64,000 nt of DNA, taken from IMG/VR virus record IMGVR_UViG_3300026484_000390, positions 4,491-68,490 of that record; one strand, 5' to 3'. The notes beneath the pieces were generated by a model. That model made no database searches. It saw nothing but the letters and a program-made list of their open reading frames with translations, and had not been told where the DNA came from. Position numbers and translations under genes: made by a program. Each line of letters opens with the position of its first letter. The first letter of the stretch is position 1. Below, piece after piece: positions 4,079-61,496 of this stretch. The DNA is from a virus.

Positions 4079-4195
4079 ATGATAGAAACAGAAGAATTTA
4101 TAGTTGAAGATATGGGTGTACAAGAACAATGGGTTTATGATATTGAGGTTGAGGATAATCATAACTTTTTTGCTAATGATATATGTGTTCATAAT
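4079..4195 (+). mobile_element. Split intein C-fragment (blocks F and G, ends HN, +1 Ser)
   Basis: MIETEEF...VYDIEV..NHNFFANDICVHN followed by Ser at 4196. Confidence 0.93.
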
Positions 4196-5053
4196 AGTAA
4201 TTATGTAAGTATTGAACCAGTTGTTAAAAAGAAATTTGGAACTGATTATTTAAAAACAACAGAAAGAATAAGAATTACAGAATTTATTGAAAACTATATC
4301 AACAAAGTTTCGTTACCTTTAACTTATGATGCTCTTAATAATATTTTAAGCAAATCTCATAATGCATATTTACCAGAAAAACTGGTTGAAGACCCTGAAG
4401 TAATTTGTGATAACTTTATATCGATTGCTCCTAAAATGTACTTCGCTAGAAAGTGGTGGGATGAAGGATTAACCTTAAGTGCACCTAAGTTAAAAATTAC
4501 TGGATTAAGCACAATTAGAAGTACTACCCCAAAATATTATAGAAAAGAACTTGCTTCAGCTATGGATATTTTAATAGATGGTGATATTCCTAAAGTGATT
4601 GAATACATAGAAACAGTTAGAGAAGGAACTATGACACAAGCACCTGAAGATATTGCAATTAACCAAGGTGTATCTAGTTTGGATTATACCTGGGATGAAA
4701 ATATTAAAAAATTCAGAAGATGGACAGGAGAGAAATACTTAGGAGCACCAGTAAATTCTAGAGCTTGTCTTACTCATAATCTGTATATTGAAAAAAATAA
4801 ATTAACTATTAAAGATATTGAACCAGGAGATAAAATTTCTTTTTTATATATGAAAACTCCTAATCCTACCTTTAATTCAAGTAACGCTTTTGGATTTAGA
4901 GATACGAAAGTATTTGATGGAGAACTTAGAAAATACATAGATCGCAATTTAATGTTTGAAAAAGGCTTTGAGACACCAATTAGACTTATAACAGATCCGT
5001 TAAACTGGGATTTAACTCCTAAAGACGAACAAATTGATGACGATGAATGGTAG
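4079..5053 (+). CDS. 43: Split intein C-fragment (39 aa) plus DNA polymerase B C-terminal fragment
   Basis: VYDIEVEDNHNFFANDICVHN|S then PKMY, KITGL..RSTTP thumb motifs. Confidence 0.95.
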   Translation: MIETEEFIVEDMGVQEQWVYDIEVEDNHNFFANDICVHNSNYVSIEPVVKKKFGTDYLKTTERIRITEFIENYINKVSLPLTYDALNNILSKSHNAYLPEKLVEDPEVICDNFISIAPKMYFARKWWDEGLTLSAPKLKITGLSTIRSTTPKYYRKELASAMDILIDGDIPKVIEYIETVREGTMTQAPEDIAINQGVSSLDYTWDENIKKFRRWTGEKYLGAPVNSRACLTHNLYIEKNKLTIKDIEPGDKISFLYMKTPNPTFNSSNAFGFRDTKVFDGELRKYIDRNLMFEKGFETPIRLITDPLNWDLTPKDEQIDDDEW

Positions 5054-5056
5054 ACT

Positions 5057-5064
5057 TATAAATA
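5057..5064 (+). promoter_or_regulatory. Late promoter TATAAATA
   Basis: Exact match followed by AGAGGA RBS and ATG at 5083. Confidence 0.7.
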
Positions 5065-5082
5065 TTCATAAAGAGGAATAAA

Positions 5083-6588
5083 ATGATTAATGAAGCATCA
5101 ATAACAGGAAGTAACACTTATGGTCCGGGCCATAAGTTAGTCCTTAAAGAATCACCAGTTAATTCTGCCAATAAAGAATTAACAAATATGGGCTATTCAA
5201 TTAATAGTGATTTCGAAATATCTAAAGAAGTAAACGACTATATTGAAATCGGACAGGGTAAAGAAACTATTTATATTAAGGAAATGACAACAAATAGAAC
5301 TTTTAAAATTAACGGAAGCAGAAGTTTTCTAAATAATATTTTTAATCACGCTAATATTAATAAGAGAGTTTTACCTAAGGGAGTAAACCCCACAAATTTC
5401 TTAGAAACTTTTGCTACTTTGGGTGTTATGGGTATTAAAACTTTTGAAGAAGCTTTATCTTATAATAATGAAGAGTTGCAAATAGATCTCAAGAAGTTTT
5501 CAAATACAGATAAAGAAACAATAGACGAGGCAGAAAAATTACTTAAAGGAGGCAACAAGAGTCCATTTAAGAAACCAGATTCTTTTATTCATAAAAATAT
5601 TAAGGATTATTATAGAGCTTTGGAAAAATATGAGAATATTAAAAAAGCTGTGAAAGATAATACTTCAGATGTTGTTTTTATTTACGGTGGTAGCCCTAAG
5701 GATTTATTCAATAATTTAAAATCAAATATCCCCAATCAATTCGATAAAGAAACAGGTCTTATCACACTAGGTAACATTTCTTTTTTTCAAGTGTCCCTCA
5801 AAAAAGGTGCCGATAAAGCAAGACTAGGAAGGATAACTACTCTAATCAGACAAACATATGATATTAACGAAGGATTGCTGGATAGAATTAAAAATGTGGG
5901 AACTTTAGGTTTTAAGGCGTTTAGCTTTATTAAATCAAAAGTACAGAAATTTCTTACTATACTTACTGAAACCTTTGCGACTAAGAAATTGGAATTAGAA
6001 CTAGAAAAATTTACAAAGAAGTATTTAAAAAAACATAAATTCCTAGTTGAAAATAACGAAACGGAAAATATAGTTAATTCTATTAATAACTCTTTCGCTG
6101 AAATTAGCAGAGTAAAGGGGATTAAAACAAAGATTATTCAAACAGACCTTAAAGAGTGTAAAACCAAAAGTGAAACTAACCTACTTATCTGTAATGATAT
6201 TTCACTTTCTTATCTTAATAAGATCTTACTAGATATTTCAAAATCTGATGCGCCTAAATATATTGCCAAAACTATAGAATTAATGAGAAAAGGAGAAACT
6301 AACTTACCAGTTGTAATGATGTATGGAGATGGCTCAACTGATGTTTTAGTTTCCGTAGATGCTGTTGTACCCAGTGGTGGGCAGATACCTACTGTAATTT
6401 TGAGCATCACACCAGCAAAAAGCGCATCATATTACGTTATATCACTTTATTACCTAGTGGGAATAGACGCTAATCCTGAACTAAGTAAGTATATATTAAT
6501 TCAGTTTAATAATGCGGGTGGAGCTTCCAAAATAGCTTGGAAAGTAGAAGGAAATTCAGTAAAAACTCTTAAACAAATAAAGATTTAA
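5083..6588 (+). CDS. Late protein, probably head-internal, with a PD-(D/E)xK-like motif
   Basis: Late promoter; MINEA and internal INEG (gp21-type cleavage sites); NTSDVVF...QVSLKK resembles a restriction-fold active site. Confidence 0.5.
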   Translation: MINEASITGSNTYGPGHKLVLKESPVNSANKELTNMGYSINSDFEISKEVNDYIEIGQGKETIYIKEMTTNRTFKINGSRSFLNNIFNHANINKRVLPKGVNPTNFLETFATLGVMGIKTFEEALSYNNEELQIDLKKFSNTDKETIDEAEKLLKGGNKSPFKKPDSFIHKNIKDYYRALEKYENIKKAVKDNTSDVVFIYGGSPKDLFNNLKSNIPNQFDKETGLITLGNISFFQVSLKKGADKARLGRITTLIRQTYDINEGLLDRIKNVGTLGFKAFSFIKSKVQKFLTILTETFATKKLELELEKFTKKYLKKHKFLVENNETENIVNSINNSFAEISRVKGIKTKIIQTDLKECKTKSETNLLICNDISLSYLNKILLDISKSDAPKYIAKTIELMRKGETNLPVVMMYGDGSTDVLVSVDAVVPSGGQIPTVILSITPAKSASYYVISLYYLVGIDANPELSKYILIQFNNAGGASKIAWKVEGNSVKTLKQIKI

Positions 6589-6642
6589 TATTTATTTAAA
6601 GTTTATTATGTTATAATAATACATAGAAGAAAAAGGACATAG

Positions 6643-7185
6643 ATGAAAACTTGGTTTATATCAGATACGCATTTTTTACATGAAAATATAAAAAAGTATT
6701 GTAATAGAAGAGATGAATATAACAAAACTATTATTAAAAACTGGAATGATTTAATCCAACCAGAAGATACAGTTTTTCATCTAGGAGACTTAACAGCGGG
6801 GGTTGGAAAAGTTCAAGATGGATATAGTAAACTTAAAAAAATAATGGGTATGCTTAATGGTAATATAGTACTTATTAAAGGCAATCATGATCACTACACA
6901 AATGAGCAATATAAAAATGATTTAAATATTAAAGCCGTTACAGAATATCATATTCAAGGTGAGTATTTTTTATGCCATTATCCACTTATAATTGATTCTT
7001 TCACCAAAGAAAAAATGATACCAGTTTTTACAGAACTTAAAAAATTATTTAAGGATTCTGGTTGTAAGTATTTACTTCACGGACATAGTCATTTAACCAA
7101 ATTTGGTGGTAAAAGAATTAACTTATCAGTAGATTTAACAGATTTTAAACCAGTTGAATATAATGATTTACTTAAACATATTTAA
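6643..7185 (+). CDS. Calcineurin-like metallophosphoesterase
   Basis: SDTHFLH, LGDL, GNHD, HYP and HGHSH motifs. Confidence 0.9.
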   Translation: MKTWFISDTHFLHENIKKYCNRRDEYNKTIIKNWNDLIQPEDTVFHLGDLTAGVGKVQDGYSKLKKIMGMLNGNIVLIKGNHDHYTNEQYKNDLNIKAVTEYHIQGEYFLCHYPLIIDSFTKEKMIPVFTELKKLFKDSGCKYLLHGHSHLTKFGGKRINLSVDLTDFKPVEYNDLLKHI

Positions 7186-7189
7186 AGTA

Positions 7190-7197
7190 TATAAATA
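7190..7197 (+). promoter_or_regulatory. Late promoter TATAAATA
   Basis: Exact match before GAGG RBS and ATG at 7219. Confidence 0.7.
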
Positions 7198-7218
7198 ATT
7201 AAAAAAAGAGGTGGAAAA

Positions 7219-7563
7219 ATGAGAAGTTTTAGAGAGATGGCTGAAGAACAAGTTAATGAAGGTGTTTTAAAAAATGCTTATAAATGGTTATTAACAAAAT
7301 CAAGAGTATTAAGAAAAATAGAAATAGATAATGAAAAACAATATGGTTACCGATTACCAGTTAAAGTAATTGAAATTGAATTCTTATCAGGTGATGAAGT
7401 AGCAGAAGGTTATGCTTTAAGTTATATCAGTTCCAAAGAAAAAGGTAGAATGCTTTGTATTCATGAAGAAGAAATATTAAAAGGTGACAAAGTTAAAATT
7501 GCTGGACCTATTAAAAGTCTTAGTAATGAAAAATTTGATATTTTCATAGCTAAAAAGGTATAG
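7219..7563 (+). CDS. Putative internal head protein with capsid-targeting leader
   Basis: MRSFREMAEEQVNEG leader resembles T4 IP leader MKTYQEFIAE; late promoter. Confidence 0.6.
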   Translation: MRSFREMAEEQVNEGVLKNAYKWLLTKSRVLRKIEIDNEKQYGYRLPVKVIEIEFLSGDEVAEGYALSYISSKEKGRMLCIHEEEILKGDKVKIAGPIKSLSNEKFDIFIAKKV

Positions 7564-7572
7564 AGGTTTAAA

Positions 7573-7992
7573 ATGAGAGGTTTTAGAGAGATGACTGAAG
7601 CACAGGTTAATGAGGGAATATTATCAAAATTTAATAGTTGGTTTAAAAATTTAGAATTAATTAAAATAATAAGAGAGGATAAAATACAAGATGAATATAA
7701 TCATACTGTTAAACTTTTTCCTATTAGCATTACATTTTCAAGAGAAGAAAATGGTTACGATTTTTATATTATAGAATCTAATAAAGAAAATAGCTTAAAA
7801 GCAAGCAAGAATAACCAACATTTATGTTTTATGAGTTCGAATGATAAAGATGTTATGGAAAACTTCCAAAAACAAATAGATAAGAGAAAAGAAGGTTCAT
7901 TTTGGTTTACATTAGGCGAAGTAAAAAGTATGACTCAAAATAATATAACGCCTTATTTTATTCAAGAAATGTCAATTGACGAAAACAAATAG
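7573..7992 (+). CDS. Putative internal head protein with capsid-targeting leader
   Basis: MRGFREMTEAQVNEG, nearly identical leader to the previous gene but unrelated body. Confidence 0.6.
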   Translation: MRGFREMTEAQVNEGILSKFNSWFKNLELIKIIREDKIQDEYNHTVKLFPISITFSREENGYDFYIIESNKENSLKASKNNQHLCFMSSNDKDVMENFQKQIDKRKEGSFWFTLGEVKSMTQNNITPYFIQEMSIDENK

Positions 7993-8001
7993 GATATAAT
8001 T

Positions 8002-9240
8002 ATGGGCGGAAATGTAACAGGAATAAACAAAAAAACTGGTGAAGAAATTAAAGCACAAAAAATTGATTTGAAAAAAGCCGGAAGAAAGGAATTTGTAAAT
8101 AAATTCACAGAAGCTTTTAAAAAATTAAACAAGCTTTATAAAAGTAAATTTAAAGAACCTTTATGGGTAAAAGAGTCGAGACTTGACACCAATGAACTGT
8201 ATAATGGAAGCACAAGTTATATAATGGATGCAAGAATTTCGGATGAAGAATTACTCCAACATAAAGAATCTGCTGGTGATTTAGATATTATTGTACCTAA
8301 ACATACTAAAGAAAATCTTTGGACTCTACTTGATGATTTAGAGGGTAAAGAAATTATTAAAGGAGTTACTTATCATGGTTCAAATAAAGCAACAGTTTCT
8401 TCAATTGGAGATCAAATAAATTCTCTTTTTATTGTAGAATTTGGTGATTATAAAGCACTTGCACAAGTTGATTTTGAATTTCTTGAAGTATCAGAAGATG
8501 GTGTTCCATCAGAATTATCAAAATTTACTCATAGTTCTTCTTTTGAAGATGCTAAAAATAAAGTAAAAGCAGTTCATCATAAATTTTTAATATTTGCTAT
8601 TAGTGGATCTATGGATGTTAGAGAAGACATCGCATTAGCAACTCCAGCAAGTACACCTGAAAAGTTAAGAATTTCTGGCAAAAAAGGTTCAGATGTTATA
8701 AGAATGCTTAAATTTGATTTAAATAAAGGTATTAGTGTTGGATATGAAAGAATGGTTGATGGCAATGGTGAGTATATGCAAACAGAAGATGGAAAAGATA
8801 TTTATAAAGAAATTCCAACTAAAAATAGAAAAGATCCTGCTAATACCGTAAGACAAATGTATCAATTATGTTTTGATAGAATTGAAGGAAATGAGCAAGA
8901 TGAAAAATTATTTTGGTCTTTTATGGGAATGGTCGAGTTACTTAAAAAATATGTTAAAGATAAGAAAACACTAGAAAAAATACATAACAGATATTTTGAA
9001 AAATTATTTGCAATAAAAGGTCAACCTGGTCAAATTTTAGAAGTTGGAGATCCAGAATTAGATTATCAAGTTAAAATTTCGGGGTATAAAAGATTTTGTA
9101 AAGAATTTGGGTTAAAAGAAAGAACAAAAGAAATACAAGCTTATTATGATAATTTTGAAAATATGAGAGGTGGAAAACTTAGAGAAAGTTGTAATATTAA
9201 TGAATTTGCAAATTTTATTAACGAGTTTATTAATAGATAA
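8002..9240 (+). CDS. Pol-beta-superfamily nucleotidyltransferase-like protein
   Basis: NGS...SAGDLDIIV (GS/DxD) and a third acidic residue in QVDF. Confidence 0.6.
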   Translation: MGGNVTGINKKTGEEIKAQKIDLKKAGRKEFVNKFTEAFKKLNKLYKSKFKEPLWVKESRLDTNELYNGSTSYIMDARISDEELLQHKESAGDLDIIVPKHTKENLWTLLDDLEGKEIIKGVTYHGSNKATVSSIGDQINSLFIVEFGDYKALAQVDFEFLEVSEDGVPSELSKFTHSSSFEDAKNKVKAVHHKFLIFAISGSMDVREDIALATPASTPEKLRISGKKGSDVIRMLKFDLNKGISVGYERMVDGNGEYMQTEDGKDIYKEIPTKNRKDPANTVRQMYQLCFDRIEGNEQDEKLFWSFMGMVELLKKYVKDKKTLEKIHNRYFEKLFAIKGQPGQILEVGDPELDYQVKISGYKRFCKEFGLKERTKEIQAYYDNFENMRGGKLRESCNINEFANFINEFINR

Positions 9241-9289
9241 TAAATTTCTATTTATATAGGATTATATAAAAAATACTAAATATAAATAA

Positions 9290-9635
9290 ATAAGTTATAT
9301 AAATGCTAAAAAAGTAAAAGAAATAATAGGTATTGCAGGTTAAACTTTAAAAAACTACAGAAGAAAAGATAAAGTAGTAGGAATTTCTTATATGATATAG
9401 ATGGTCTAATGCTTACAAAACCTAAGGTTAAAAAGACAAGTTATTTTCTAGGGTAAGTAATGCTAAACAAAAAGAAGACTTAGAAGCAAGAAAATATTAA
9501 GGGAATTTACTACTTCTAAAGGTATTATAGTATATAAAGACATAGCTTCTGGAATGAAAGAAGATAGAAAAGGATTAAATAAGTGCAAAATAGTAATATA
9601 ACTTATAAAGGTAGACTTACTAGGTTTGGATATAA
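9290..9635 (+). pseudogene. Degraded IS607-family TnpA (serine recombinase) remnant
   Basis: Broken frames read NAKKVKEIIGI, FSRVSNAKQKEDLE, YKDIASGMKEDRKGLNK, ITYKGRLTRFGY. Confidence 0.8.
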
Positions 9636-9637
9636 TT

Positions 9638-10174
9638 ATGTTTAGAGAATTAGTTTATTTACAAGAATCAGATAAAATTAGAGATATTTTATTTGAAGAA
9701 AGTATATTTGTTTTAGTTATTGGTGGCTCAGCATCAGGTAAAAATTATATTTATGATTTAAATTTTAAAAATATAGAATTAGTTGATAATGATCAAATAA
9801 CAAAAGAACTTTCTGGTGGAGATTTTGAGAAAGCAAGAAAGTTAATTTCAAAAGCAACTTCAATAGCAAATAAAAGATTAGAAAAAGCATTTAAAGATAA
9901 CACAAGCATTGGACAAGTTTCGACTGGTAGTAATCAAAAAGGTGTTGAAAATAAACTTATTAAAGCAAAATCATTTAATATGAAAACTGCACTTATTTTA
10001 ATTGATACAAATGTTAAAAAAGCAATTAAAAGAAATGAAGAAAGAGCAGAAGAAGGCTTACAAGGATTAATTCCGGAATGGAAAGTAGAAAAATCAAATG
10101 AAAAAGCACGAGAAACTTTTAACAGTTTGAAAAAATTAGATATAGTAGACTATAATATAGTAATTAAAAATTAA
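9638..10174 (+). CDS. P-loop kinase (AAA_33/zeta-toxin-like); likely start at ATG 9638
   Basis: IGGSASGKN Walker A; AIKRNEER lid; MFRELVYLQES leader. Confidence 0.7.
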   Translation: MFRELVYLQESDKIRDILFEESIFVLVIGGSASGKNYIYDLNFKNIELVDNDQITKELSGGDFEKARKLISKATSIANKRLEKAFKDNTSIGQVSTGSNQKGVENKLIKAKSFNMKTALILIDTNVKKAIKRNEERAEEGLQGLIPEWKVEKSNEKARETFNSLKKLDIVDYNIVIKN

Positions 10175-10211
10175 GGTTATTTAAATTATTTTATGTTATA
10201 ATTAAAAACAA

Positions 10212-11753: not shown

Positions 11754-11831
11754 CAAAAGAAGGTCAAAGTTTGCTATCTATTAAAAAAAGAAAAATTTGT
11801 TCCTTTTGGGAAATTATATTAGGAGATTAAA

Positions 11832-44343: not shown

Positions 44344-45354
44344 ATGAGTTTAGATTTCAATACAGCAGGGTCAATGGACTGGAGTTCATTAGAGAAAAAT
44401 TTAGGGGCTAATGTAACAGCACAAAAGAAAAATTATGCAGATGACAGATTTTGGACATTGGCCAGAGATGAGAATGACAATGGTGGGGCAATAATTAGAT
44501 TACTTCCGGATCCGGAAGGAACACCGTTTATACAACTTTTTAATCATGCATTTCAATCATTCGATAATGTAAACAAGAAAAAAAGATGGTATATTAACAA
44601 CTCTCCGCAAACAGTAGGTGCAGAATGTCCAGCAAGTGATTTATGGAGTGCATTATTTAATGAGGGCTCTGAAGAAGGAAAACTAGAAGCTAAAAACTTC
44701 TCAAGAAAGATTCAGTTCTATACAAACATTAAAGTGATTAAAGATCCAAGTAATCCAGCAAATGACGGTAAAATTTTCGTATGGAAATTTGGCACAAAGT
44801 TAAAAGATAAAATTATGGCGGCTTTACAACCATCAGATACAGATATTGCAATGGGTGAGGAACCTAAACAATTATTTAATCCAATCACTGGATGTAATAT
44901 TAAGTTAAAAATTCAAAAAGCAGCAGGTTTTTTAAACTACGATGCTACAACTATTGAAGGTGTAAGTTCAATTTACCCAGATGGTGAAACAGCAAAAGCA
45001 GATATTATAGAAAATGCGCACAAATTAAGTGAATTTAATTCGCCAGATGCGTTTGAGACTTATGAAGAATTGTTAAAGAAAATGAAATATGTTTTAGAAT
45101 GTTATTCACCTAAAAACTTAACTGCAGAAAGATTTGCACAAGTAGTTAATCCAATTATTAATGTGGCACCTACAGCAACCGCTCAAGCAGCACCAGTACA
45201 AGCTGTACAAGAAGTTACTCCTGTAACACAAGCAGCACCAGTACAAGAAGTAGCACCAGAAGTTGCTCCTGTAACACCAACAGCACCAGTAGTTGCAACA
45301 CCAGCACCAACTGCAGGAAATGAAGGTGATCTCAGCTTTCTTGATGATTTGTAA
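44344..45354 (+). CDS. 32: Single-stranded DNA-binding protein (T4 gp32)
   Basis: DDRFW..D..G.AIIRLLP, WYINN, NIKVIKDP.NP.NDGK.F, acidic tail DLSFLDDL. Confidence 0.95.
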   Translation: MSLDFNTAGSMDWSSLEKNLGANVTAQKKNYADDRFWTLARDENDNGGAIIRLLPDPEGTPFIQLFNHAFQSFDNVNKKKRWYINNSPQTVGAECPASDLWSALFNEGSEEGKLEAKNFSRKIQFYTNIKVIKDPSNPANDGKIFVWKFGTKLKDKIMAALQPSDTDIAMGEEPKQLFNPITGCNIKLKIQKAAGFLNYDATTIEGVSSIYPDGETAKADIIENAHKLSEFNSPDAFETYEELLKKMKYVLECYSPKNLTAERFAQVVNPIINVAPTATAQAAPVQAVQEVTPVTQAAPVQEVAPEVAPVTPTAPVVATPAPTAGNEGDLSFLDDL

Positions 45355-47673: not shown

Positions 47674-48603
47674 ATGACTGGATTAACACAAGCAAAAGAA
47701 GCATTCGAAAGAGTTGAAGGAAATACAATAGTTTTACGAAATAGTAAGGGTTTGTATAAAAGAAAACTTAAAAATAAAGAAGGCGTTTTAACATTTCCGT
47801 TTAATGGTGTGAAATACGCTTACAATCACGACACTAAAGAAATAGAAAGTGTAGAGACTGGAGAAAAAGCTACAGTAAGTACAGCCCCTGTTCAGTCAGA
47901 GTTTAATATAAATGAAAGATTCGAGTTTTTGGGTAACTTTACTAATATGGTAATTAAAAATGTAACAGCATCCTTATTAGTATCAGGAGAGGGTGGATTA
48001 GGTAAAACTCACACTATTAAAGAAAAGATAGCAGAAGCAGGTTTGGTTGAGGACCAAGATTATGTTATAATTAAAGGTTATAGCACACCAAAAGCTTTAT
48101 ATGCAACTCTATATGAGAATCAAGACAAATTAGTTATTTTTGACGACTGTGATATTGTTTTAAAAGATGTAACTTCTTTAAACATTTTAAAAGGTGCCTT
48201 AGATAATTACGATGAGAGAATTATTAGTTGGTTATCAAGAGGTTTTGTGTCGGATGACTTACCGAGTTCGTTTAAATTTACCGGAAGAGTAATTTTTATT
48301 AGTAACTTAGCTTTAAATAAGGTAGATGGTGCAGTTAAATCTAGAACTTTAAGCGTAGATTTAAGTATGACTTCACAAGATAAAATAGATAGAATGAGAG
48401 CGATAATTGAAAAAATTGAACCAGACTACGCTTTAGAAGTAAAAGAAAAAGTACTTAATTTCTTAGACGAAAATAAAGAAAAAGCAAAAGAACTTAATAT
48501 GAGAACTTTTGAAAAAGCAATTAAAGTATTGGCTTACTACATTGAAATGGATATAGAAGACCAAGGGATGGAAGCAATTAAATATTTACTTCTTTGTATA
48601 TAA
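47674..48603 (+). CDS. AAA+ ATPase, early
   Basis: GEGGLGKT, IFDDCD, GRVIFISN, AVKSR. Confidence 0.85.
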   Translation: MTGLTQAKEAFERVEGNTIVLRNSKGLYKRKLKNKEGVLTFPFNGVKYAYNHDTKEIESVETGEKATVSTAPVQSEFNINERFEFLGNFTNMVIKNVTASLLVSGEGGLGKTHTIKEKIAEAGLVEDQDYVIIKGYSTPKALYATLYENQDKLVIFDDCDIVLKDVTSLNILKGALDNYDERIISWLSRGFVSDDLPSSFKFTGRVIFISNLALNKVDGAVKSRTLSVDLSMTSQDKIDRMRAIIEKIEPDYALEVKEKVLNFLDENKEKAKELNMRTFEKAIKVLAYYIEMDIEDQGMEAIKYLLLCI

Positions 48604-48727: not shown

Positions 48728-49723
48728 ATGACTAAATATAGTGAACGGCTAAAAACTCAAGGAAACTACGAAATTTCTTTTGAACCTAATAGTATATGGA
48801 AATATAAAAAAAATAAAATTCTTGAAAAATTATGTGAAACTGAATACACCAAAGAGCAAAAAACTAAAAGGACTGGAGACTGGGTAAAGGCTGGGCCAGG
48901 AGGTCATTTTTCAGGGTGGAATAAGGAATACAATAAAAGAATAATTGAATTTTGGACTGCAAAAGGTGATACAATATTAGATCCTTTTGCAGGACATTCC
49001 TCTTCTTTTATGCCTTATTTAATGGAAAGGAATTTTATAGGGTTTGAGATAACTACAAAACGATATAATATACAAGTAGAACATATAGCAAAGCTGAAAA
49101 ATAAATATGGTTTTAAATCTGAAATCTTTTTATATAATAAATCTAGTGAGCATATAACAGACAATTTAATAGGCAAAAAGGTAGATGCCATTATAACAGA
49201 TCCACCTTTCTGGGATTTGGAAAAATATGAAGCCCCTATTTCAGGTACGCAGTTATCAGATATTAAAAAGCTAGATGATTTTAATAAAAAGTTAAAAGAT
49301 ATTCTATCTTTAAGTGTTAAATACCTTAAAGATGGAGGGTATATGATAGTTAAAGTAGCGAATATGAGAAGAGAAGGTAAACTCGTAAAACTTAAAGTGA
49401 TGTGGGAAGAAATGATAGAAAAAATGGGTATGGAATTAGTAGACGAAATTATTTTGGAGCTATCTCCAGTAAAACGACACCCTTTATATGCTCAAGCCAT
49501 TACTAATTTGAATATGCTAAAAGTGCATGAATATGCCTTAGTATTTAGAAAGAAAGATAAAAATGTTTTAATAAGTAACCATATTAATTTTTCTAGGCCT
49601 TTAGTTAAAGATGTGTACAACAACGAAGACCGGTTGTTTTGGAGTGAAGAGCGAGGGAAGAAGGACCATATTACAGAATCTTTGGAACGCACAAAAGAAT
49701 CCTTCGACGAAAGTGAGTGGTAA
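48728..49723 (+). CDS. SAM-dependent amino (N6A/N4C-type) DNA methyltransferase-like protein
   Basis: ILDPFAGHSS (variant motif I), GFEI, ITDPPFW, HEYALVFRK. Confidence 0.8.
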   Translation: MTKYSERLKTQGNYEISFEPNSIWKYKKNKILEKLCETEYTKEQKTKRTGDWVKAGPGGHFSGWNKEYNKRIIEFWTAKGDTILDPFAGHSSSFMPYLMERNFIGFEITTKRYNIQVEHIAKLKNKYGFKSEIFLYNKSSEHITDNLIGKKVDAIITDPPFWDLEKYEAPISGTQLSDIKKLDDFNKKLKDILSLSVKYLKDGGYMIVKVANMRREGKLVKLKVMWEEMIEKMGMELVDEIILELSPVKRHPLYAQAITNLNMLKVHEYALVFRKKDKNVLISNHINFSRPLVKDVYNNEDRLFWSEERGKKDHITESLERTKESFDESEW

Positions 49724-50971: not shown

Positions 50972-51787
50972 ATGGCAATACCAATAGACGAAATATTTGG
51001 TGATAACAATCAAGCGAGTAATGGCGGAGGAACACTCCAAGGAGAAGGATTACGAATGGGCATTCCTAGTATCTTTATTAGAACTGGAGGATGCAATTTA
51101 ACTTGTTCAGGATTTGGTTGTACAATTAAATCGGCATTAGATAAAGAAACAATTATAACCGGGTGCGATTCTATACATGCAGTGAATGTGAAGCATTTTA
51201 AGCATACTTGGACTTATTACGATACTGCGTCTGATTTAGTTCAGGCTATTCTTAAACATTATAAAATTAGACCAGAAGGGAATTCCGAAAAGCCTGATTT
51301 AGTTTTTACTGGTGGAGAACCTCTTATTCATCACAGTGACCCTTCTTTAATAGGTGCTTTAGAATATTTCATATCTAGAGGGCATAAAATCTATTTTGAA
51401 ACAAACGGTACCATTCAAATAGATTTTGAGAAATATCCGATTTTTAAAAGAGTTTCTTTTAGTATGTCCGTAAAAATGAGTGCATCGGGGGAAAATAAAA
51501 GTAAAAGATGGAAACCTGAAGTTGTTAATCAATATTTGCTTAATACAGAGGGCTCCTATTTTAAATTTGTTTTAAGTAAAGTATCTATAGAAACAGAAAA
51601 GGCAGAAGTGTTTGAATTTCTTAATCAGGTTCCTACTTTTGGGATAGTTTACTGTATGCCTTTAGGTGAGACTTCTAAAGAAGTACAAGTTAATGCAAAA
51701 GCGGTTTACAACTTTGCCGCAGAACATGGTTTCAGATATTCAGATAGATTACATATTAGAATTTTTGAGGATTTGCGAGGAGTTTAA
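50972..51787 (+). CDS. queE: 7-carboxy-7-deazaguanine synthase (radical SAM)
   Basis: TLQGEG..G.P.IFIRTGGCNLTC...CDS, FTGGEP, ETNGT, RLH. Confidence 0.92.
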   Translation: MAIPIDEIFGDNNQASNGGGTLQGEGLRMGIPSIFIRTGGCNLTCSGFGCTIKSALDKETIITGCDSIHAVNVKHFKHTWTYYDTASDLVQAILKHYKIRPEGNSEKPDLVFTGGEPLIHHSDPSLIGALEYFISRGHKIYFETNGTIQIDFEKYPIFKRVSFSMSVKMSASGENKSKRWKPEVVNQYLLNTEGSYFKFVLSKVSIETEKAEVFEFLNQVPTFGIVYCMPLGETSKEVQVNAKAVYNFAAEHGFRYSDRLHIRIFEDLRGV

Positions 51788-55083: not shown

Positions 55084-55084
55084 A

Positions 55085-56101
55085 ATGCACAAAATAGTTA
55101 GAAGTAAAGCACCTTTACGATTAGGTTTTGGAGGTGGAGGGACAGATGTCTCTCCTTTTAGTGACACCCACGGAGGATATGTTCTAAATGCTACTATAAA
55201 CAAATACAGCTATTGTACAATAGAAGAAAACATAAAAGATAATAAAACTTATTTTGAAGCTACAGATATTGGCGAGACTAATGAATGCAATGAAAAAGGT
55301 AAGAGTATAAATGATAAATGTTTACTTTTAACCGGAGTATATAACTCTTTAATAAAGCGCAATCTCATAAAATATACACCACTAAAAATTAGTACTTATT
55401 CTGATGTTCAAGGTGGTTCAGGATTGGGTTCTAGTTCTACAATGGTAGTAGCTATTTTGCAATCTTTTATAGAATATTTCAATATCCCATTGGGAGAATA
55501 CGACATAGCAGAATTAGCTTGGGAAATAGAAAGAAAAGAATTATTATTGCAAGGCGGAAAACAAGATCAATTTTGTGCTACTTTTGGAGGATGGAATTTT
55601 ATGGAATTTAATAAGGATAATACAATAGTTAATCCTTTAAGAATAAAATCAAATTTTTTAAATGAATTATCTGCTAGTTTACTTATTTGTTTTGTGGGAA
55701 AAAGTAGAAACTCTGGAGATGTAATAGCTGAGCAAATTAAATCACAAGGCAAGTCTGAGAGTTCACTAATGAATTTAAAGCAGTCAGCTTTAGATATGAA
55801 AGAAGCTGTACTAAAATGTGATATAAAATCTTTTGGTATAATTTTAAATAAATCTTGGGAAGCCAAGAAAAAAACCTCTCAAAATATATCAAACGAGTAT
55901 ATAGATAAAATATACAATACAGCCATTAAACACGGTGCATTTTCAAGTAAACTTTCAGGTGCCGGGGCATCGGGGTTTATGATGTTTTTAGTAGCGCCTG
56001 AAAAGAAAGTTAATGTTAAGCGAGTACTTAAAGATGAATTTGGACTAAAAGCCGAGGATATACAGTTTTCTAAGGAAGGTGTAGTTTCTTGGCAGGTTTA
56101 A
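55085..56101 (+). CDS. hddA: D-glycero-alpha-D-manno-heptose 7-phosphate kinase
   Basis: RSKAPLRLGFGGGGTD, GSGLGSSS, GGKQDQ, KLSGAGASGF (GHMP). Confidence 0.92.
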   Translation: MHKIVRSKAPLRLGFGGGGTDVSPFSDTHGGYVLNATINKYSYCTIEENIKDNKTYFEATDIGETNECNEKGKSINDKCLLLTGVYNSLIKRNLIKYTPLKISTYSDVQGGSGLGSSSTMVVAILQSFIEYFNIPLGEYDIAELAWEIERKELLLQGGKQDQFCATFGGWNFMEFNKDNTIVNPLRIKSNFLNELSASLLICFVGKSRNSGDVIAEQIKSQGKSESSLMNLKQSALDMKEAVLKCDIKSFGIILNKSWEAKKKTSQNISNEYIDKIYNTAIKHGAFSSKLSGAGASGFMMFLVAPEKKVNVKRVLKDEFGLKAEDIQFSKEGVVSWQV

Positions 56102-56280
56102 GCGACAAAATAGACAAGAATTAAAAACTTCAACTAACTTATAGATAATAAGTGTTTAATGGAACTAAGAGCACATATCTTCTTACTACCAGTATAATTA
56201 AAAACGGTACCTGCAAGAGGTACTGTCTTTTATATAGCTTTAAGGAAAATTCAGTTATAATATAATATAAAGGATAAAAA

Positions 56281-56841
56281 ATGAATACAGATATTATTAA
56301 CCACATAAAGGCATTATCGTCATTAGATAAAGAAACTTTAACTTATTATAAATCAATTGTTAAAACAGCAATTAAACAAAGAAGAACAATTTTTACAGCC
56401 GGCAACGGTGGGAGTGCATCAGATAGTGCACATTTAACTGGAGAAATAGTAGGGAAATTTTTAATTGACCGACCAGGATATCCTGCAGTTGATTTATCAG
56501 CCAATAATACAGTTATAACAGCTATAGGGAACGATTTCGGATACGAAAAGATTTTTAGTAGACAATTAGAATCCGCTGCCAACCAGGGAGATGTGTTTAT
56601 CGGTTTTACAACTTCAGGAAATTCTAAAAATATTTTAGAAGGTGCTAAACAGGCTAAAAAGATGGGATTAGAAGTGTTAATTATATCAGGAAGAGATGGG
56701 GGAGAGATTGCTAAAGAAGGATTTAAGTCTTTAATTGTAAATAGTAACTCTACTCCAGTTATACAGATAGTGCACGGATTTATTTTACATCAAATTGCCT
56801 ATGTAACTGATGAAGTTTTCCGAGAACAAGATGACATCTAA
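56281..56841 (+). CDS. gmhA: Sedoheptulose 7-phosphate isomerase
   Basis: GNGGSA.D.AH..E, TAIGNDFG...FSRQ, TTSGNS.N, IQ..H. Confidence 0.95.
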   Translation: MNTDIINHIKALSSLDKETLTYYKSIVKTAIKQRRTIFTAGNGGSASDSAHLTGEIVGKFLIDRPGYPAVDLSANNTVITAIGNDFGYEKIFSRQLESAANQGDVFIGFTTSGNSKNILEGAKQAKKMGLEVLIISGRDGGEIAKEGFKSLIVNSNSTPVIQIVHGFILHQIAYVTDEVFREQDDI

Positions 56842-57478
56842 ATCTGAAATCTTAGAAAATATACCCGTATTGATATTAGCAGGAGGAAGAGGAACTAGAT
56901 TGCAGTCAGAAGTATCAGATAGAGCCAAACCAATGGCTGATATAAACGGTAGGCCGTTTATGGATTTATTATTAGAGAAATATAAAAAACACAAAATTTA
57001 TATTTCTGTAGGATACAAAAAAGAATCTATTATAAATGCGTATAAAGATAAATATGAATATATTATAGAAAATGAGGCTTTAGGAACTGGTGGTGCTATT
57101 AAAAAGGCATTTACTGAGACTAAAGTTAATAAAATGATAGTCTTAAACGGAGATACTTATACAGATCTTAATATTACTTTAAGAAAAGAGAGTGTTGTTA
57201 TTAATACAGTTTATCAAGAAAACTGTCACAGATACGGGCTTGTAACTTCTGTAAACGGAAAAATTCACTTTAAAGAAAAGGGTTACAACGGTGAGGGTTG
57301 CATCAATTCTGGAGTTTATATTATAGATAAAAAAGTGCTGGCAGATGAACCAGATATTTTTAGTTTTGAAGACTTTTTAACAAAATATGATGATATTGGT
57401 ATTATAGAACATAAAGCTAGTTTTATAGATATTGGAGTTCCTGAAGATTATAGGAAGGCGGTAAAACAATTTGGATAA
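56831..57478 (+). CDS. hddC: Heptose 1-phosphate guanylyltransferase
   Basis: ILAGGRGTRL, KPMA, LGTGGAI, LNGDT, FIDIGVPEDY; next to hddA, gmhA and gmhB. Confidence 0.88.
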   Translation: MTSKSEILENIPVLILAGGRGTRLQSEVSDRAKPMADINGRPFMDLLLEKYKKHKIYISVGYKKESIINAYKDKYEYIIENEALGTGGAIKKAFTETKVNKMIVLNGDTYTDLNITLRKESVVINTVYQENCHRYGLVTSVNGKIHFKEKGYNGEGCINSGVYIIDKKVLADEPDIFSFEDFLTKYDDIGIIEHKASFIDIGVPEDYRKAVKQFG

Positions 57479-57941
57479 AATATTATTTTTAGATAGAGAT
57501 GGGGTCATCAACAAAGACCCAAACGGATACACTTATGATTATAACACTTTGGAATATAATAAAGACTTAATAGAATATATTAGTAGAAATTTTAACGATT
57601 ATATTAAGATAATAGTGACCAATCAGTCGGGAATAGCACGAGGAAAATATACTAAGAACGATTTTTTAGAATTAAGTGCCTATATAATAAATGATTTAAA
57701 AAAGTTTGAAATAATAATTGATGAAATATATTATGCTCCTTATTTGCCTGATAGCAATCACTTTGATAGAAAACCTAACCCGGGTATGATTATTAAGGGA
57801 TTAATGAAATATAAAATTAATCCCAAAAACTGTATAATGATAGGTGATAAGGAAACGGATAGAGAGGCAGCGAAACACGCTGGAATTGATAACTTTATAA
57901 TGTATAAGGAAGGATTATATTATGATAAGGATAATTGGTAA
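57471..57941 (+). CDS. gmhB: Heptose 1,7-bisphosphate phosphatase (HAD)
   Basis: FLDRDGVIN, VTNQSGIARG, RKPNPGM, MIGDKETD. Confidence 0.95.
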   Translation: MDKILFLDRDGVINKDPNGYTYDYNTLEYNKDLIEYISRNFNDYIKIIVTNQSGIARGKYTKNDFLELSAYIINDLKKFEIIIDEIYYAPYLPDSNHFDRKPNPGMIIKGLMKYKINPKNCIMIGDKETDREAAKHAGIDNFIMYKEGLYYDKDNW

Positions 57942-58647
57942 CGGTGCAATAGGTAAATATTTACTGACTGATAATAGTTTTGAGATGTTTCCTAGGTTCT
58001 CTTTGGAAAACTATATTTCTAGTAAGGAAAATATTTTAAGTTATGGTAAAGGTAATACTTTTATATTTACAGCAGGAATGAGTAAACCTCAAGACTGTGA
58101 AGAAAATTTTGTATTATTGGGAAAGATAGTTAATGGAACAATAAAAGCTATTAAGGATATAGCTATTCATAATAAAGTACTTTTTTTGAGCTCAGATGTT
58201 GTAAAAGGTAGAAGTACATCGTATTCTTGGAGTAAAAAAGAAATAGAAAAGAATCTTTTGGAAATTAATAATGTTAAAGTAGCCAGACTGTCTTATGTAT
58301 TCTCGGATGTAAAAGGATTTGAAGACCCTTTTACTAAATATGCTATACAAGAAGAAAAAGCAATAGAAGTTTATGCAGACCTTAAACGAAATATAATTCA
58401 TATTAAAGATGTTAAAGACGGAATTATCGAAATATGCAGTAATTTTAAAAAAGCACCTGATATTATTAGCTTAACTGGCAAAAACTGTATAGACAAAAGC
58501 ACTCTATTGCAGTATATTAAGTGTGAATATAATATAATAACAGACACTAAGGCGATAGAAAAGTTTTTTAAAAATAGAGATAAATATATTTCTGTTGAAC
58601 CAAACTTTTATATGCCTAAAATCGATTTAACCAAAGGAAGAGAATGA
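57922..58647 (+). CDS. RmlD-like NAD(P)-dependent 4-keto sugar-nucleotide reductase
   Basis: IIGNGAIG, FLSSD, YSWSK (YxxxK), ARLSYV. Confidence 0.75.
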   Translation: MIRIIGNGAIGKYLLTDNSFEMFPRFSLENYISSKENILSYGKGNTFIFTAGMSKPQDCEENFVLLGKIVNGTIKAIKDIAIHNKVLFLSSDVVKGRSTSYSWSKKEIEKNLLEINNVKVARLSYVFSDVKGFEDPFTKYAIQEEKAIEVYADLKRNIIHIKDVKDGIIEICSNFKKAPDIISLTGKNCIDKSTLLQYIKCEYNIITDTKAIEKFFKNRDKYISVEPNFYMPKIDLTKGRE

Positions 58648-59705
58648 GCAATACAAAAATTAAAAAAGTATTATTAACAGGCATAACAGGACAAGTGGCA
58701 TCGATATACGCCGATTTTTTATTAGCAAATACTGATGTTGATATTATAGGATCACTTAGGTGGCAAGAACCTATAGATAATATTAGACATTTAACCGATA
58801 GAATAAACAAAAAAGATAGAATCCTTACAGAGTTCGCAGATTTGAATGATTATAGCAGCTTTGAAAGATTAATTAAAAAGCATAAACCAGATGTGATTGT
58901 TTCACTTGCAGCTGAGAGCTACCCTACAACAAGTTTTTCAAATCCATTAATAACTATGCAAACAAACATTTTGGGTACTAATAATATTCTAGAAATTGTT
59001 AGAATTATGAAAGAAGAAGAAGGATATAATCCACTAATACACATAGTAAGCTCTTCTGAAGTTTATGGGAAAGCTAGTTCCAATAAAGATGGTAAAGACT
59101 TATTAATAGGCGAGGAAACAAAGTTTCACGGTGCAAGTCCATACTCTATTTCTAAAATAGCTACAGACTATTTAGGTCAATTTTATGGTGAAGCTTATAA
59201 TATGAACACAGTAGTAACAAGGTTAGGCACTCATACAGGAGCTAGAAGAGGTTCTGTATTTGTAGAATCGGTAATGGCTAGAAAACTGGTCGAAATTGAG
59301 ATGGGCTTACACAAACCAGAAATCCTAATGGGTAATTTGGAAAGTATTAGGACATTTCAAAATGCTAGGGATGCAGTTAGGGCTTACTGGTTGCTTACTT
59401 TAGAAATGGAAAAAGGTAATATTAAGAAAGGTGACTATTTTAATATAGCAGGAAATGAAAAATTTAAACTATCTGATTTATTAGAAACTATGAAGCAGAA
59501 AATAAATTATAAAAATAAAATATCAGTAGGTATAGACCCAGATAGACTTAGAGTAATTGATGCTGATTATCAACTTTTTGAATGTGATAAAATTAAAAAA
59601 GTTATAGATTGGGAACCTGAAATTTCTATGGATGATACTATTGATGAACTTTTAGATTATTGGAGAACTGAATACAAAGAAGGCCGAGTCCCTTTAGACA
59701 GATGA
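58644..59705 (+). CDS. dmhA: GDP-D-manno-heptose 4,6-dehydratase (DmhA/WcbK-like)
   Basis: LTGITGQV, RWQEP.DNI.HL.DRINKKDRI, LAAESYP.TSF, SSSEVYG, SPYSISK; recalled as closely resembling Campylobacter DmhA. Confidence 0.88.
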   Translation: MSNTKIKKVLLTGITGQVASIYADFLLANTDVDIIGSLRWQEPIDNIRHLTDRINKKDRILTEFADLNDYSSFERLIKKHKPDVIVSLAAESYPTTSFSNPLITMQTNILGTNNILEIVRIMKEEEGYNPLIHIVSSSEVYGKASSNKDGKDLLIGEETKFHGASPYSISKIATDYLGQFYGEAYNMNTVVTRLGTHTGARRGSVFVESVMARKLVEIEMGLHKPEILMGNLESIRTFQNARDAVRAYWLLTLEMEKGNIKKGDYFNIAGNEKFKLSDLLETMKQKINYKNKISVGIDPDRLRVIDADYQLFECDKIKKVIDWEPEISMDDTIDELLDYWRTEYKEGRVPLDR

Positions 59706-60017
59706 GTTACAAAAAGTAAATAAAACTGAAAGAATCCAATAATTAAGTAAAAAATTCTTAATGATATAGTTTTTCTGAGTTCTAAATATATAATAACATT
59801 ACTTAATATAAATAAATATAAGAGGAAATAAATGAGAAATATAAATACCAAAAAGAAAAGGGATATATTATGTTAAAAAGAGATAATCAAGATTATCATT
59901 ACAATACTCATTATAATAAAGAGAAGAGAACCCACTTTTTAGGGCCTAAATCTTATGAAATGTTGAGCATAGAAAAATTCGATTTATACAAATGTAGAGT
60001 GGACGAAGATAGATAAA

Positions 60018-61496
60018 ATGGTATTCAGATATATAGTGGCAGGATTTGCCTCAGGTGCTCAATTTACTTTAGCGAATAAAATGTACCCTGAATTTACAAA
60101 AGCGATAATGAATAAGATACACCCAAACTCTTTAAATCTAAGTCTGGGAGTATTGAGTAATGCTTATACAGAGAAAAGAGAGCTTAAAGCTTTATTTGAG
60201 CAGTTACCTGATATACCAAAATATAGTGACTCAGGTGCTCTTCAAGTCCTCACAAGGGGTCTTGAATTTGATGAAAAAATGAGGAAAGAAGTTTATACAA
60301 GACAAATAGAAGAATCAGATTATTGTATGAGTTTTGATGAAATGGCTACAGAAATTTTAGACGAAACAACTGACTTTGGAGTAGCAACTTCTCTAAGCAC
60401 ACGAGGTAGATTTTTTGTAGATAATAAATTTCAAGAAGCGGGTAAAATATCTGCTATGAATATTTTTAAACAGATACAAGTTTTTAAAGAAAACAGTACA
60501 ACACCCAAAGACAAAATTCTTATTATACTGCACGGTAGAAGTTTTGAAACCTACAGAGAATACGCTTGGTTTCTATTTAAGGAACTAAAAATTCTATGCC
60601 CTAATTATTTAGATTACTGTAAAGGACTAGCAATAGGTTCATCTGCAGGTGCGGGATTAGGAAACTACTTTGACTTTATGATGAGATTTCAGCATGAGAT
60701 GGAATTTGTTCCTCTAAAACTTAGGCAGTATTTGCATATTTTGGGGGCTGGTGGTGTTACAAAAATAGCTCCTTTGTTTATGATTCCCAAATCTTATTGG
60801 CTCAAAGATACAATTATTAGCTCAGACAGTACTAGACAAAGCAAAGCTATTAAATTTGGTAATTTTGTGGGATATGATAAAAATAGTTTTAAACGAGAAG
60901 AAATAATGACCAACGGAATATACGACGGCCCTAGGACTCAAAGTATTCTTACTAAGATTTATGACGAATTTAAAACAGAACTTAAAATTATAAATTGCAA
61001 TAGTTATACAGATTTTCAAGAAAACTTTACGCAATACAACTCAGAAAGGAAACGGGTTAAATCTGATTTTGAAACAGATGACTCTTATCATAATGCAGTA
61101 AATATATTCTCTTTTTTATGGGCTAGTAAAATGATTATTGACCTATTTAGTCACTTAGAAGCCAGTTCATCTGTAAATACTAATGAATTACAAACTCTTA
61201 CAAAGTGGCCAAGCAATCTCATAAATCTTATAAAAAATTGTAATAAGCATTCTGATTATATTACAGAAACAATCTCGGGGCATCCCTACAAAGGAACCCA
61301 AGCAACAGATAAAATATCAGATGGCGAACTCAGTAGAGAAATCTTTAGTTATCAGAACGGCCATAGGACCGTTGCAGTAGATGGTTCTGTAAGAAGCATT
61401 CTTTTATCTTCTTTAACAGGCCTTAAACAAAAAACTATCAAAAGAAATACAGATTCTACCAGTTTATTAGAGGAATTCAACGACGAAGAGTGGTAA
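60018..61496 (+). CDS. TGT-fold base-exchange enzyme, DpdA-like (paralogue 2)
   Basis: SDSGALQ, MSFDEMA, ILHG, GLAIG, LHILGAG, SDSTR. Confidence 0.72.
   Translation: MVFRYIVAGFASGAQFTLANKMYPEFTKAIMNKIHPNSLNLSLGVLSNAYTEKRELKALFEQLPDIPKYSDSGALQVLTRGLEFDEKMRKEVYTRQIEESDYCMSFDEMATEILDETTDFGVATSLSTRGRFFVDNKFQEAGKISAMNIFKQIQVFKENSTTPKDKILIILHGRSFETYREYAWFLFKELKILCPNYLDYCKGLAIGSSAGAGLGNYFDFMMRFQHEMEFVPLKLRQYLHILGAGGVTKIAPLFMIPKSYWLKDTIISSDSTRQSKAIKFGNFVGYDKNSFKREEIMTNGIYDGPRTQSILTKIYDEFKTELKIINCNSYTDFQENFTQYNSERKRVKSDFETDDSYHNAVNIFSFLWASKMIIDLFSHLEASSSVNTNELQTLTKWPSNLINLIKNCNKHSDYITETISGHPYKGTQATDKISDGELSREIFSYQNGHRTVAVDGSVRSILLSSLTGLKQKTIKRNTDSTSLLEEFNDEEW

Follow-up and report, generated by a model that had tools for sequence, protein, structure and literature searches.

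The DNA polymerase and three DNA-modifying enzymes of a phage contig share an acidic, Trp-terminal tail: a candidate clamp-docking peptide

Why should a phage DNA polymerase and several DNA-modifying enzymes encoded on the same contig end in the same short peptide? The question arises from a stretch of DNA of 64,000 nucleotides (nt), hereafter the window, which corresponds to positions 4,491-68,490 of the 68,490-base virus record IMGVR_UViG_3300026484_000390 of IMG/VR. Four proteins encoded there terminate in the dipeptide Glu-Trp (EW): the C-terminal part of a gp43-like, family-B DNA polymerase whose gene is split, a DNA methyltransferase of the N6/N4 type, and a pair of paralogues resembling DpdA and TGT. 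An earlier note on this DNA had read the tail as the phage's own motif for docking on the sliding clamp, which would allow the modifying enzymes to ride the clamp and act on the DNA as it is replicated. The contig has a G+C content of ~27% and a CheckV completeness of 31%. The coordinates of the genes discussed are collected in the table below.

The tails exist, far exceed their chance frequency, are conserved, and co-vary with the polymerase tail across phages. The four C-termini read QIDDDEW (polymerase), SFDESEW (methyltransferase), NLDPEEW (DpdA/TGT-like paralogue 1), and EFNDEEW (paralogue 2), exactly as had been noted, and the definition proposed for them, a hydrophobic residue followed by D/N-x-x-E-W, holds for all four. 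In each case the motif forms the last six residues ahead of the stop codon, with the common spacing hydrophobic-x4-W, an aliphatic or aromatic residue at position -6, acidic residues, and a single terminal Trp. The tails were counted in a greedy set of 124 open reading frames (ORFs), each of at least 40 amino acids (aa), from the whole 68,490-base contig, and the proteome-wide scan that the earlier note had called for finds the EW end on exactly these four and on no other. As the EW dipeptide occupies 14 of the 21,435 dipeptide positions, 0.08 EW ends would be expected among the 124 ORFs, and the probability of four or more is 1.6e-6. The full pattern [LIFVMYW][DN]xxEW occurs five times over all ORFs, four times at the extreme C-terminus and once internally, in a 101-aa ORF at 19703-20008. 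The only further ORF with a terminal Trp is the HAD-family phosphatase (YYDKDNW), a borderline variant that was left out of the count.

Four EW ends, with a probability of ~2e-6, can thus scarcely have arisen by chance or be neutral leftovers of common descent or of the shuffling of modules. It is true that the two DpdA-like proteins are paralogues (25% identical to each other), so that their tails are not fully independent, but when they are counted once, three unrelated folds still share the tail. We also considered that EW might arise from a coding overlap with the start of the gene that follows, and rejected this, since the following genes start 2 to 248 bases past the stop codons. The overlap of the methyltransferase ORF with the long primase ORF is a formal one, an in-frame primase ATG being present at 49725, one base past the stop codon.

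The position of the tail on the polymerase gives the first indication of its function. The nearest named relatives of this protein found by tblastn among T4-like polymerases are those of Campylobacter phages (35% identity), and the enzymes of phages F379 and CP220 end in T-L-E-E-W. An unsplit relative from IMG/VR (L002, 64% identity) ends in I-D-E-D-E-W. To place these ends in the wider family, 79 further IMG/VR loci with T4-like polymerases were surveyed, of which 77 have a complete end. By eye, all 77 are of the hydrophobic-x-x-aromatic, [S/T]-[L/I]-x-x-[F/L]-[F/L/Y] kind, most of them exactly so; a regular expression for the canonical tail fits 68 of the 77, and the same number have an F-F/L-F pair where the window has its single Trp. 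When 15 polymerase C-termini were aligned with MAFFT, the I...EW of the window was placed on the L...FF of the others. Judged from this alignment and the 77 IMG/VR tails, the EW tail therefore stands where gp43 has its own tail, behind the thumb domain.

In T4, according to the available portions of two reviews, the C-terminal tail of gp43 binds the clamp gp45, two further proteins, gp33 and gp55, share this tail, and the three tails are interchangeable (PMC2988020, PMC3012046). The gp45 pocket for the gp43 tail is composed of hydrophobic and two basic residues (PDB 1b8h), and the linker ahead of the tail is variable (PMC2988020, PMC3012046; same portions). The window tail resembles the T4/RB69 gp43 tail in being the extreme C-terminus after the thumb, in combining hydrophobic and acidic residues, and in its position in the alignment. 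It differs in that the T4/RB69 tail ends in two hydrophobic or aromatic residues, whereas the window tail has a single Trp after Glu and a longer acidic run. Moreover, the clamp-binding function is established for T4/RB69 and is a proposed one for the tail of the window.

The polymerase gene itself is interrupted. The N-terminal fragment ends in an intein N-part, the C-terminal fragment opens with the intein C-part, and between them (window 556-5053) lies a 349-aa ORF of phrog_22677 that is 42% identical to F379_018. The polymerase is split alike in F379 and CP21 and is unsplit in CP220 and L002. The split looks like a mobile intein/endonuclease insertion, of a kind already annotated in Aeromonas phages.

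The behavior of the tail in other phages is more informative. In eight genomes the DpdA-like homologue ends in the tail subtype of the polymerase of the same genome, the pairs (polymerase and DpdA-like, respectively) being SLDDLFE and TLDELFE in ACP17, SLEDLFGW and SLDDLFG in Moby, SLESLFG and SLEELFG in BUDD, TLDDFFS and SLDSFFD in BUCT-ZZ01, TLSGLFG and SLRGLFG in L151, SLEDFFG and NLEDFFA in L169, NTLDF and NILDL in L145, and VMDFFS and LMDFV in G010. The match is partial in pf16 and L146 and absent in KVP40 and 6E35.1a. Over 13 genomes, a mean of 3.62 of the last eight residues are identical between the polymerase and the DpdA-like protein of the same genome, compared to 2.42 ± 0.28 in shuffled pairings. 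None of 20,000 shuffles reached 3.62, a count that is not a true probability because the genomes are mutually related and the comparisons not independent. The co-variation is the key and strongest evidence that the tail is a shared docking peptide.

Tail classes (canonical-like and acidic-W) were further counted by regular expressions, with the same expressions for all families. Among cluster representatives of the DpdA-like family, 62 of 150 have a canonical-like tail and 12 an acidic-W tail (74 of 150 together), and many of the 76 others are visibly variants of the same tail. The acidic-W forms are concentrated among the matches closest to the window. As a background, the non-polymerase ORFs of the polymerase loci give 12 canonical-like and no acidic-W tails in 1036. 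Of the DpdA-like homologues, the closest four are 33-38% identical; three of them have the end [D/E]-E-W, and the fourth has F-E-E-W ~40 residues ahead of a different acidic end. The linkers preceding the tails cannot be aligned between DpdA-like proteins, but the last residues are kept at an overall identity of 33-38%. In the model of paralogue 2 the tail follows a linker of ~75 residues of low confidence (418-492). The unalignable linkers with conserved ends, the enrichment across whole families, and the fact that tail-less variants are not equally common among close relatives add to the case against chance or a neutral remnant.

A similar picture is obtained for the methyltransferase family. 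Among homologues of the window enzyme at 39-62% identity, 50 of 89 carry a tail like [S/T]-L-D-x-F-F and one of 89 an acidic-W tail, the region ahead of the tail being variable in length. Distant methyltransferases have neither (0 of 24 for both classes). A tblastn search of phages with the methyltransferase gave no match, an alignment-based scan returned, among the matches listed, only distant methyltransferases (at most 30% identity) and no polymerase/methyltransferase pair from the same genome, and five large IMG/VR records contain no member of the family. A separate FkbM-type methyltransferase, located beside a polymerase, bears the tail of that polymerase.

The tail also extends to a further family in relatives of the phage. 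At loci L143-L216 a gene pair recurs in which a GT1-like protein of ~450 aa is encoded directly upstream of the DpdA-like gene and both proteins have a clamp-type tail (e.g., L143 8634-9995 with 9992-11275, L009 12-1355, L140 13154-14593, and L137 10343-11731). The strict tail motif is present in 43 GT1-like ORFs upstream of a DpdA-like gene, from 43 loci, and the tail class of the GT1-like protein follows that of its DpdA-like neighbor in BUCT-ZZ01, L140, and L137. The last of these is a 21-kb contig that is syntenic with the window at 42-56 kb and encodes gp32, RNase H, clamp loader, primase, QueE, a DpdA-like protein, and a GT1-like protein; its DpdA-like protein ends in E-D-E-E-W and the adjoining GT1-like protein in Y-N-E-W.

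A third tail class was also encountered. The jumbo contigs L140 (224 kb; 5756-11407) and L142 (306 kb; 8473-11392) encode two to three tandem DpdA-like paralogues together with QueE, and all of these paralogues end in x-[S/T]-[D/N]-x-L-F. The same class is found on the closest homologues of the window methyltransferase (57-62% identity). A complete polymerase tail was not found in L140 or L142, where only fragments matched PF00136.

On the basis of these results we propose, with a probability of roughly 0.6, that the EW tail is a lineage-specific, Trp-terminal variant of the T4 clamp-binding epitope that has been extended to DNA-modification enzymes. In such a scenario, the polymerase, once assembled by intein trans-splicing, would use its I-D-D-D-E-W end to dock on the clamp. 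The same handle, borne on flexible, poorly conserved linkers, would allow the methyltransferase and the two DpdA-like enzymes to compete for, or fill spare sites of, clamps left on the nascent DNA. The clamp-tethered enzymes would then modify the new DNA at or just behind the fork, and we infer that tethering would make the modification co-replicative. The first half of the earlier proposal, a docking peptide shared by the polymerase and the modification enzymes, is thus supported by the conservation among homologues and by the tail type tracking that of the polymerase. The second half, that the clamp is the partner, is inferred from the position of the polymerase tail and from a surrogate fold, described below, that lends it weak support.

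Several observations weigh against this reading. A clamp gene was not found on the 68.5-kb, 31%-complete contig, where the Pfam models PF09116 and PF02916 gave no match. The tails end in one Trp where canonical tails have a hydrophobic or aromatic pair, and none of the four fits the canonical PCNA-interacting-peptide (PIP) box Qxxhxxaa (Gln, an aliphatic residue at +3, and aromatics at +6/+7), as quoted in the available part of PMC3012046. The RNase H of both the window and L137 (4052-5284) keeps a canonical S-L-D-D-F-F tail beside the EW tails. In F379, the sole other ORF ending in EW encodes a tail-fibre-like structural protein, which could be due to chance (~0.17 expected). The DpdA homologues of the KVP40 type (L016 2498-3877, KVP40; L008 1501-2877, 6E35.1a) are without the tail even though their polymerases have one, so that tethering is not universal in the family. 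Finally, the available part of a 2025 preprint (10.64898/2025.12.06.692756) states that the earlier reported interaction of the T4 alpha-glucosyltransferase with gp45 was not reproduced, and clamp-riding modification enzymes are therefore contested in T4 itself. It is the only such association claimed in print for a phage modification enzyme, and the work that failed to reproduce it used C-terminal tags, which would hide a tail of this kind.

The missing clamp gene was considered in some detail. A clamp hidden Markov model (HMM) of our own gave a best E of 0.05 against the contig, phmmer with the F379 clamp gave 0.08, and PHROGs named none of 60 window and upstream ORFs as a clamp. A clamp-loader gene is present, which implies that the phage uses a sliding clamp, although the contig lacks the gene for it. 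Upstream of the window (numbering of L007) two divergent ORFs, 1457-1867 on the minus strand and 1956-2564 on the plus strand, both match phrog_225, the small clamp-loader subunit (gp62-like). Past this pair lie an ORF resembling a DHH phosphoesterase and then a gp41-type helicase that runs into the window.

The Pfam gp45 model matched all five phages with FF/LF-type tails that were tested, four of them over the cut-off, and the Pfam gp45 models gave no match in F379. An HMM built from the five FF/LF-type clamps matches F379_027 at an E of 1.3e-10, in agreement with the gp45 homologue reported for a Campylobacter phage in the available part of PMC3322345. The Campylobacter-phage clamp profile, run against the PDB, returned T4-family clamps only, at an E of 0.15. 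Alignment-based scans with this clamp family returned three Campylobacter phages only from IMG/VR and three contigs of at most 3 kb from metagenomes. In these sequence comparisons clamp and tail diverge together, the clamp of the Campylobacter phages, whose polymerase has an EW tail, being beyond the reach of the Pfam gp45 models.

As a surrogate for the missing complex, the CP220 clamp trimer was folded with the last 45 residues of the CP220 polymerase in three runs, along with three controls. The fold score is 0.60 (0.58, 0.60, and 0.62 in the individual runs), compared to 0.00 for the best control. Between runs at least 50% of the contacts recur, and the predicted local distance difference test (pLDDT) value of the partner is at least 42. 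Of 80 solved complexes, 58 reach the mark for a fold, as do two of 110 mismatched pairs; only seven of those 80 solved complexes score 0.60 or lower, and so do both of the mismatches that pass. As a like complex has already been solved (the RB69 clamp with the polymerase peptide, PDB 1b8h), the pass may reflect likeness to it and not binding. The modelled fold thus lends weak support to docking of the tail on the clamp.

The RNase H tail might point to a different partner. Two tail classes stand side by side in the same phage, so that a single shared pocket offers no obvious explanation, and a second site or another partner is possible. The EW tail might dock on another hub of the replisome, such as gp32, the helicase, the clamp loader, or an adaptor, with the FF tail of RNase H being the true clamp ligand. 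Acidic tails with a terminal aromatic residue bind basic pockets in interactions centred on single-stranded DNA (ssDNA)-binding protein (SSB) and in those of the T7 replisome. The conservation of both classes in the window and in L137, the more acidic character of the EW tail and its single terminal aromatic, and the weakness of the surrogate clamp fold would all be consistent with such a hub, for which the gp32-type protein, with its acidic C-terminus, is a candidate. We consider it unlikely, because the EW tail of the polymerase sits exactly where 77 of 77 other T4-like polymerases have their clamp-binding tail, and because phages with canonical tails place a clamp-type tail on the same enzyme families. 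In addition, in the Campylobacter phages the polymerase has the EW end and the RNase H is without an FF-type tail to occupy the clamp instead, although these phages encode both a clamp and its loader. An assignment of the EW ends to the family of SSB-type acidic tails was rejected, since their carriers are enzymes and the acidic end of gp32 is a different one.

In both the window and L137 the RNase H is ~100-130 aa longer than in four T4-like phages, whose RNase H matches lie in open frames of 287-323 aa, and the RNase H of Moby, BUCT-ZZ01, ACP17, and KVP40 is without a C-terminal tail. In having a canonical C-terminal tail, the window enzyme is similar to the FEN-1 family nucleases, which have a C-terminal PIP box. 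It differs from the T4 RNase H, whose PIP motif is at the N-terminus, as described in the available part of PMC3012046.

A role outside the replisome may also be envisaged, with the tail serving as a degradation or stability signal, a localization or packaging signal, or a handle for a chaperone. Short C-terminal peptides act as such signals elsewhere, and the EW end of the structural protein in F379 would fit. This is quite improbable, as the carriers in the window are limited to the polymerase and DNA-modifying enzymes, and as the tail type tracks the polymerase across phages, in which the tail is otherwise a known clamp-binding epitope.

We return to the proposed Trp-terminal clamp epitope and to the enzymes that carry it. 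A (β/α)8-barrel, TGT-like fold is indicated for the DpdA-like proteins by structure rows of the ESM Atlas that bear PF01702 TGT, with template modelling (TM) values of 0.63 and 0.57, high enough there for a name to be assigned; when searched by features, the ESM Atlas gives a TGT-bearing cluster at 0.94 and a DpdA cluster at 0.91. In the AlphaFold2 (AF2) model of paralogue 2, residues 1-300 form an alternating β/α core and residues 305-416 a helical part, and the pLDDT values are below 50 at 418-492. Foldseek of the AF2 model against the PDB returned only generic TIM barrels (best E 1.4e-3), a profile of six DpdA-like homologues found no sequence match in the PDB, and neither paralogue matched Pfam PF01702 TGT or PF23859 DpdA at E values up to 0.01. 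All invariant columns of the family alignment are kept in paralogue 1, and the invariant D-S-G-G stretch and further invariant Asp columns, which may be the catalytic residues of TGT, are present in both paralogues.

The gene neighborhood points in the same direction. A QueE-like gene, whose product is 40% identical to the QueE of F379, lies 1.5 kb upstream of paralogue 1. The DpdA-like homologues found by tblastn in six named phages are all located among queC/queD/queE/queF/folE genes, some of them being annotated as queuine tRNA-ribosyltransferase. On the present, incomplete contig QueE is the only 7-deazaguanine precursor gene. The two TGT-like proteins thus resemble the phage DpdA1-4 in their likeness to the TGT/DpdA fold, in the queC/queD/queE/folE neighborhood of their homologues, and in the QueE-like gene beside paralogue 1, and they most likely belong to the TGT/DpdA superfamily as DNA guanine transglycosylases. 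The suggestion that DNA is their substrate gains support from the gene clusters of the homologues and from the likeness to TGT/DpdA. The tail shared with the polymerase would likewise favor DNA, and not tRNA, as the substrate.

A nucleotide-sugar pathway is encoded between the DpdA-like paralogues and beyond (window 55085-59705 and 62102-63112), with a GHMP kinase, a SIS isomerase, a nucleotidyltransferase, a HAD phosphatase, an enzyme resembling GDP-mannose-4,6-dehydratase, and a GT1 glycosyltransferase. The gene set presumably resembles that for the synthesis of heptose or 6-deoxyheptose nucleotides. It suggests either a sugar-bearing DNA hypermodification or a remodelling of the host surface.

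The arrangement has precedents. In T4, gp33 and gp55 are unrelated proteins that share the tail of the polymerase of their phage behind a variable, flexible linker, and the clamp-binding tail of gp55 follows a linker, as in DpdA-like paralogue 2 (PMC2988020, available portions). The clients differ, gp33 and gp55 being factors of late transcription whereas those of the window are DNA-modifying enzymes, joined in relatives by the GT1-like protein. Homologues of gp33 and gp55 were sought on the contig as a test of the tail, and none was identified. The eukaryotic DNMT1 is bound to PCNA by a PIP box. This case and that of the T4 alpha-glucosyltransferase with gp45 are alike in concept to the present one, a DNA-modifying enzyme being held at the fork by the clamp. 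For the T4 alpha-glucosyltransferase no such tail has been claimed, whereas the window enzymes have a linear motif identical to the tail of their own polymerase, and it is present on three to four enzyme families. The T4 clamp-binding epitope is known; a form of it with a terminal Trp, and such a tail on DNA-modifying enzymes of several families, are new. A full-text literature search found no paper that links DpdA or phage 7-deazaguanine with a sliding clamp.

The DpdA of the KVP40 type has no clamp-type tail, in contrast to the window proteins and most metagenomic members. The homologue in the KVP40 group is probably the counterpart of the DpdA2 that Vibrio phage nt-1 encodes; we take nt-1 to be a member of this group. 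The available part of the study of Cui, Hutinet et al. (10.1101/2023.04.13.536721) describes the insertion of 7-deazaguanine as post-replicative, makes no mention of the clamp, and reports very low insertion by DpdA2 and large, unexplained differences in efficiency between the DpdA subfamilies. At the level of a guess, the absence of the tail in the DpdA of the KVP40 group may be linked to the low modification reported for DpdA2.

How phages achieve a complete, or nearly complete, replacement or decoration of their bases after replication is an open mechanistic question, and a motif shared with the polymerase on three to four enzyme families makes the question of clamp tethering testable, with the cultured phages Moby, ACP17, and BUCT-ZZ01 as models. 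The tail may also serve as a simple annotation marker for clamp clients, and the Trp-terminal variant, together with a clamp that is invisible to Pfam, would be a natural case of co-evolution of clamp and ligand. In a broader and more tentative form of the proposal, to which we assign slightly less than an even chance, the T4-like clamp would be a tool-belt for hypermodification. Its clients would be the DpdA2-like proteins, the neighboring GT1-like proteins, and methyltransferases both of the N6/N4 family and, in at least one case, of the FkbM type. Tethering would make the modifications co-replicative and would set the completeness of genome modification. The lineage of the window would have switched to the acidic, Trp-terminal form with a strongly diverged clamp, while RNase H kept the FF form. 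If this is true, the tail-less DpdA2 of the KVP40 type with its low insertion would be an exception that fits the rule, and two classes of ligands would have separate sites or ranks on one clamp.

Table. Genes of the window discussed in the text, with their C-terminal tails and the basis of their assignment.
Gene product	Position	Strand	C-terminal tail	Basis
N-terminal fragment of split DNA polymerase, ends in intein N-part	556..2982	+		Pfam DNA_pol_B, DNA_pol_B_exo1, Intein_splicing (residues 703-806)
C-terminal fragment of split family-B gp43-like DNA polymerase	4079..5053	+	I-D-D-D-E-W (codons 5033-5050)	Pfam Intein_splicing (residues 15-39); tblastn
gp32-type ssDNA-binding protein	44344..45354	+	L-S-F-L-D-D-L	Pfam gp32, E 1.6e-37
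RNase H/FEN-like 5'-3' exonuclease, 439 aa	45966..47285	+	S-L-D-D-F-F-A-D-F	Pfam 5_3_exonuc_N, RNaseH_C
Clamp-loader large-subunit-like protein	47674..48603	+		phrog_1250, phrog_168 'clamp loader of DNA polymerase'
N6/N4 DNA methyltransferase	48728..49723	+	F-D-E-S-E-W (codons 49703-49720)	Pfam N6_N4_Mtase (PF01555), 68.2 bits, cut-off 26.7
QueE-like radical SAM enzyme (7-deazaguanine precursor synthesis)	50972..51787	+		phrog_2076, E 1.9e-47
DpdA/TGT-like paralogue 1, 587 aa	53320..55083	+	L-D-P-E-E-W (codons 55063-55080)	phrog_10773, E 1.3e-38
HAD-family phosphatase	57471..57941	+	Y-D-K-D-N-W	Pfam Hydrolase_like, HAD_2
DpdA/TGT-like paralogue 2, 492 aa	60018..61496	+	F-N-D-E-E-W (codons 61476-61493)	phrog_10773, E 3.9e-43

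Related loci were also searched for with larger and with single queries. A megablast of 18 kb against the phage collection gave no match; of the single proteins, the polymerase led to one relative, and DpdA-like paralogue 2 and the methyltransferase led to none.

Three small ORFs of the window have similar ends, at 19236-19475 (79 aa, P-E-Y-F-L), 20403-20672 (89 aa, P-E-C-F-I), and 22279-22482 (67 aa, A-E-Y-F-I). They are probably paralogues, and PHROGs gave no informative match for them. A 298-aa ORF on the minus strand (39816-40712) has a match to the major head protein family phrog_138 that is confined to the C-terminal half of the family, is 27% identical to the F379 capsid protein, and stands alone among early-type genes. 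Four ORFs resembling homing endonucleases or HNH proteins are located within the replication and modification module, at 43360-44253, 45384-45830, 52012-53289, and 63114-63998.

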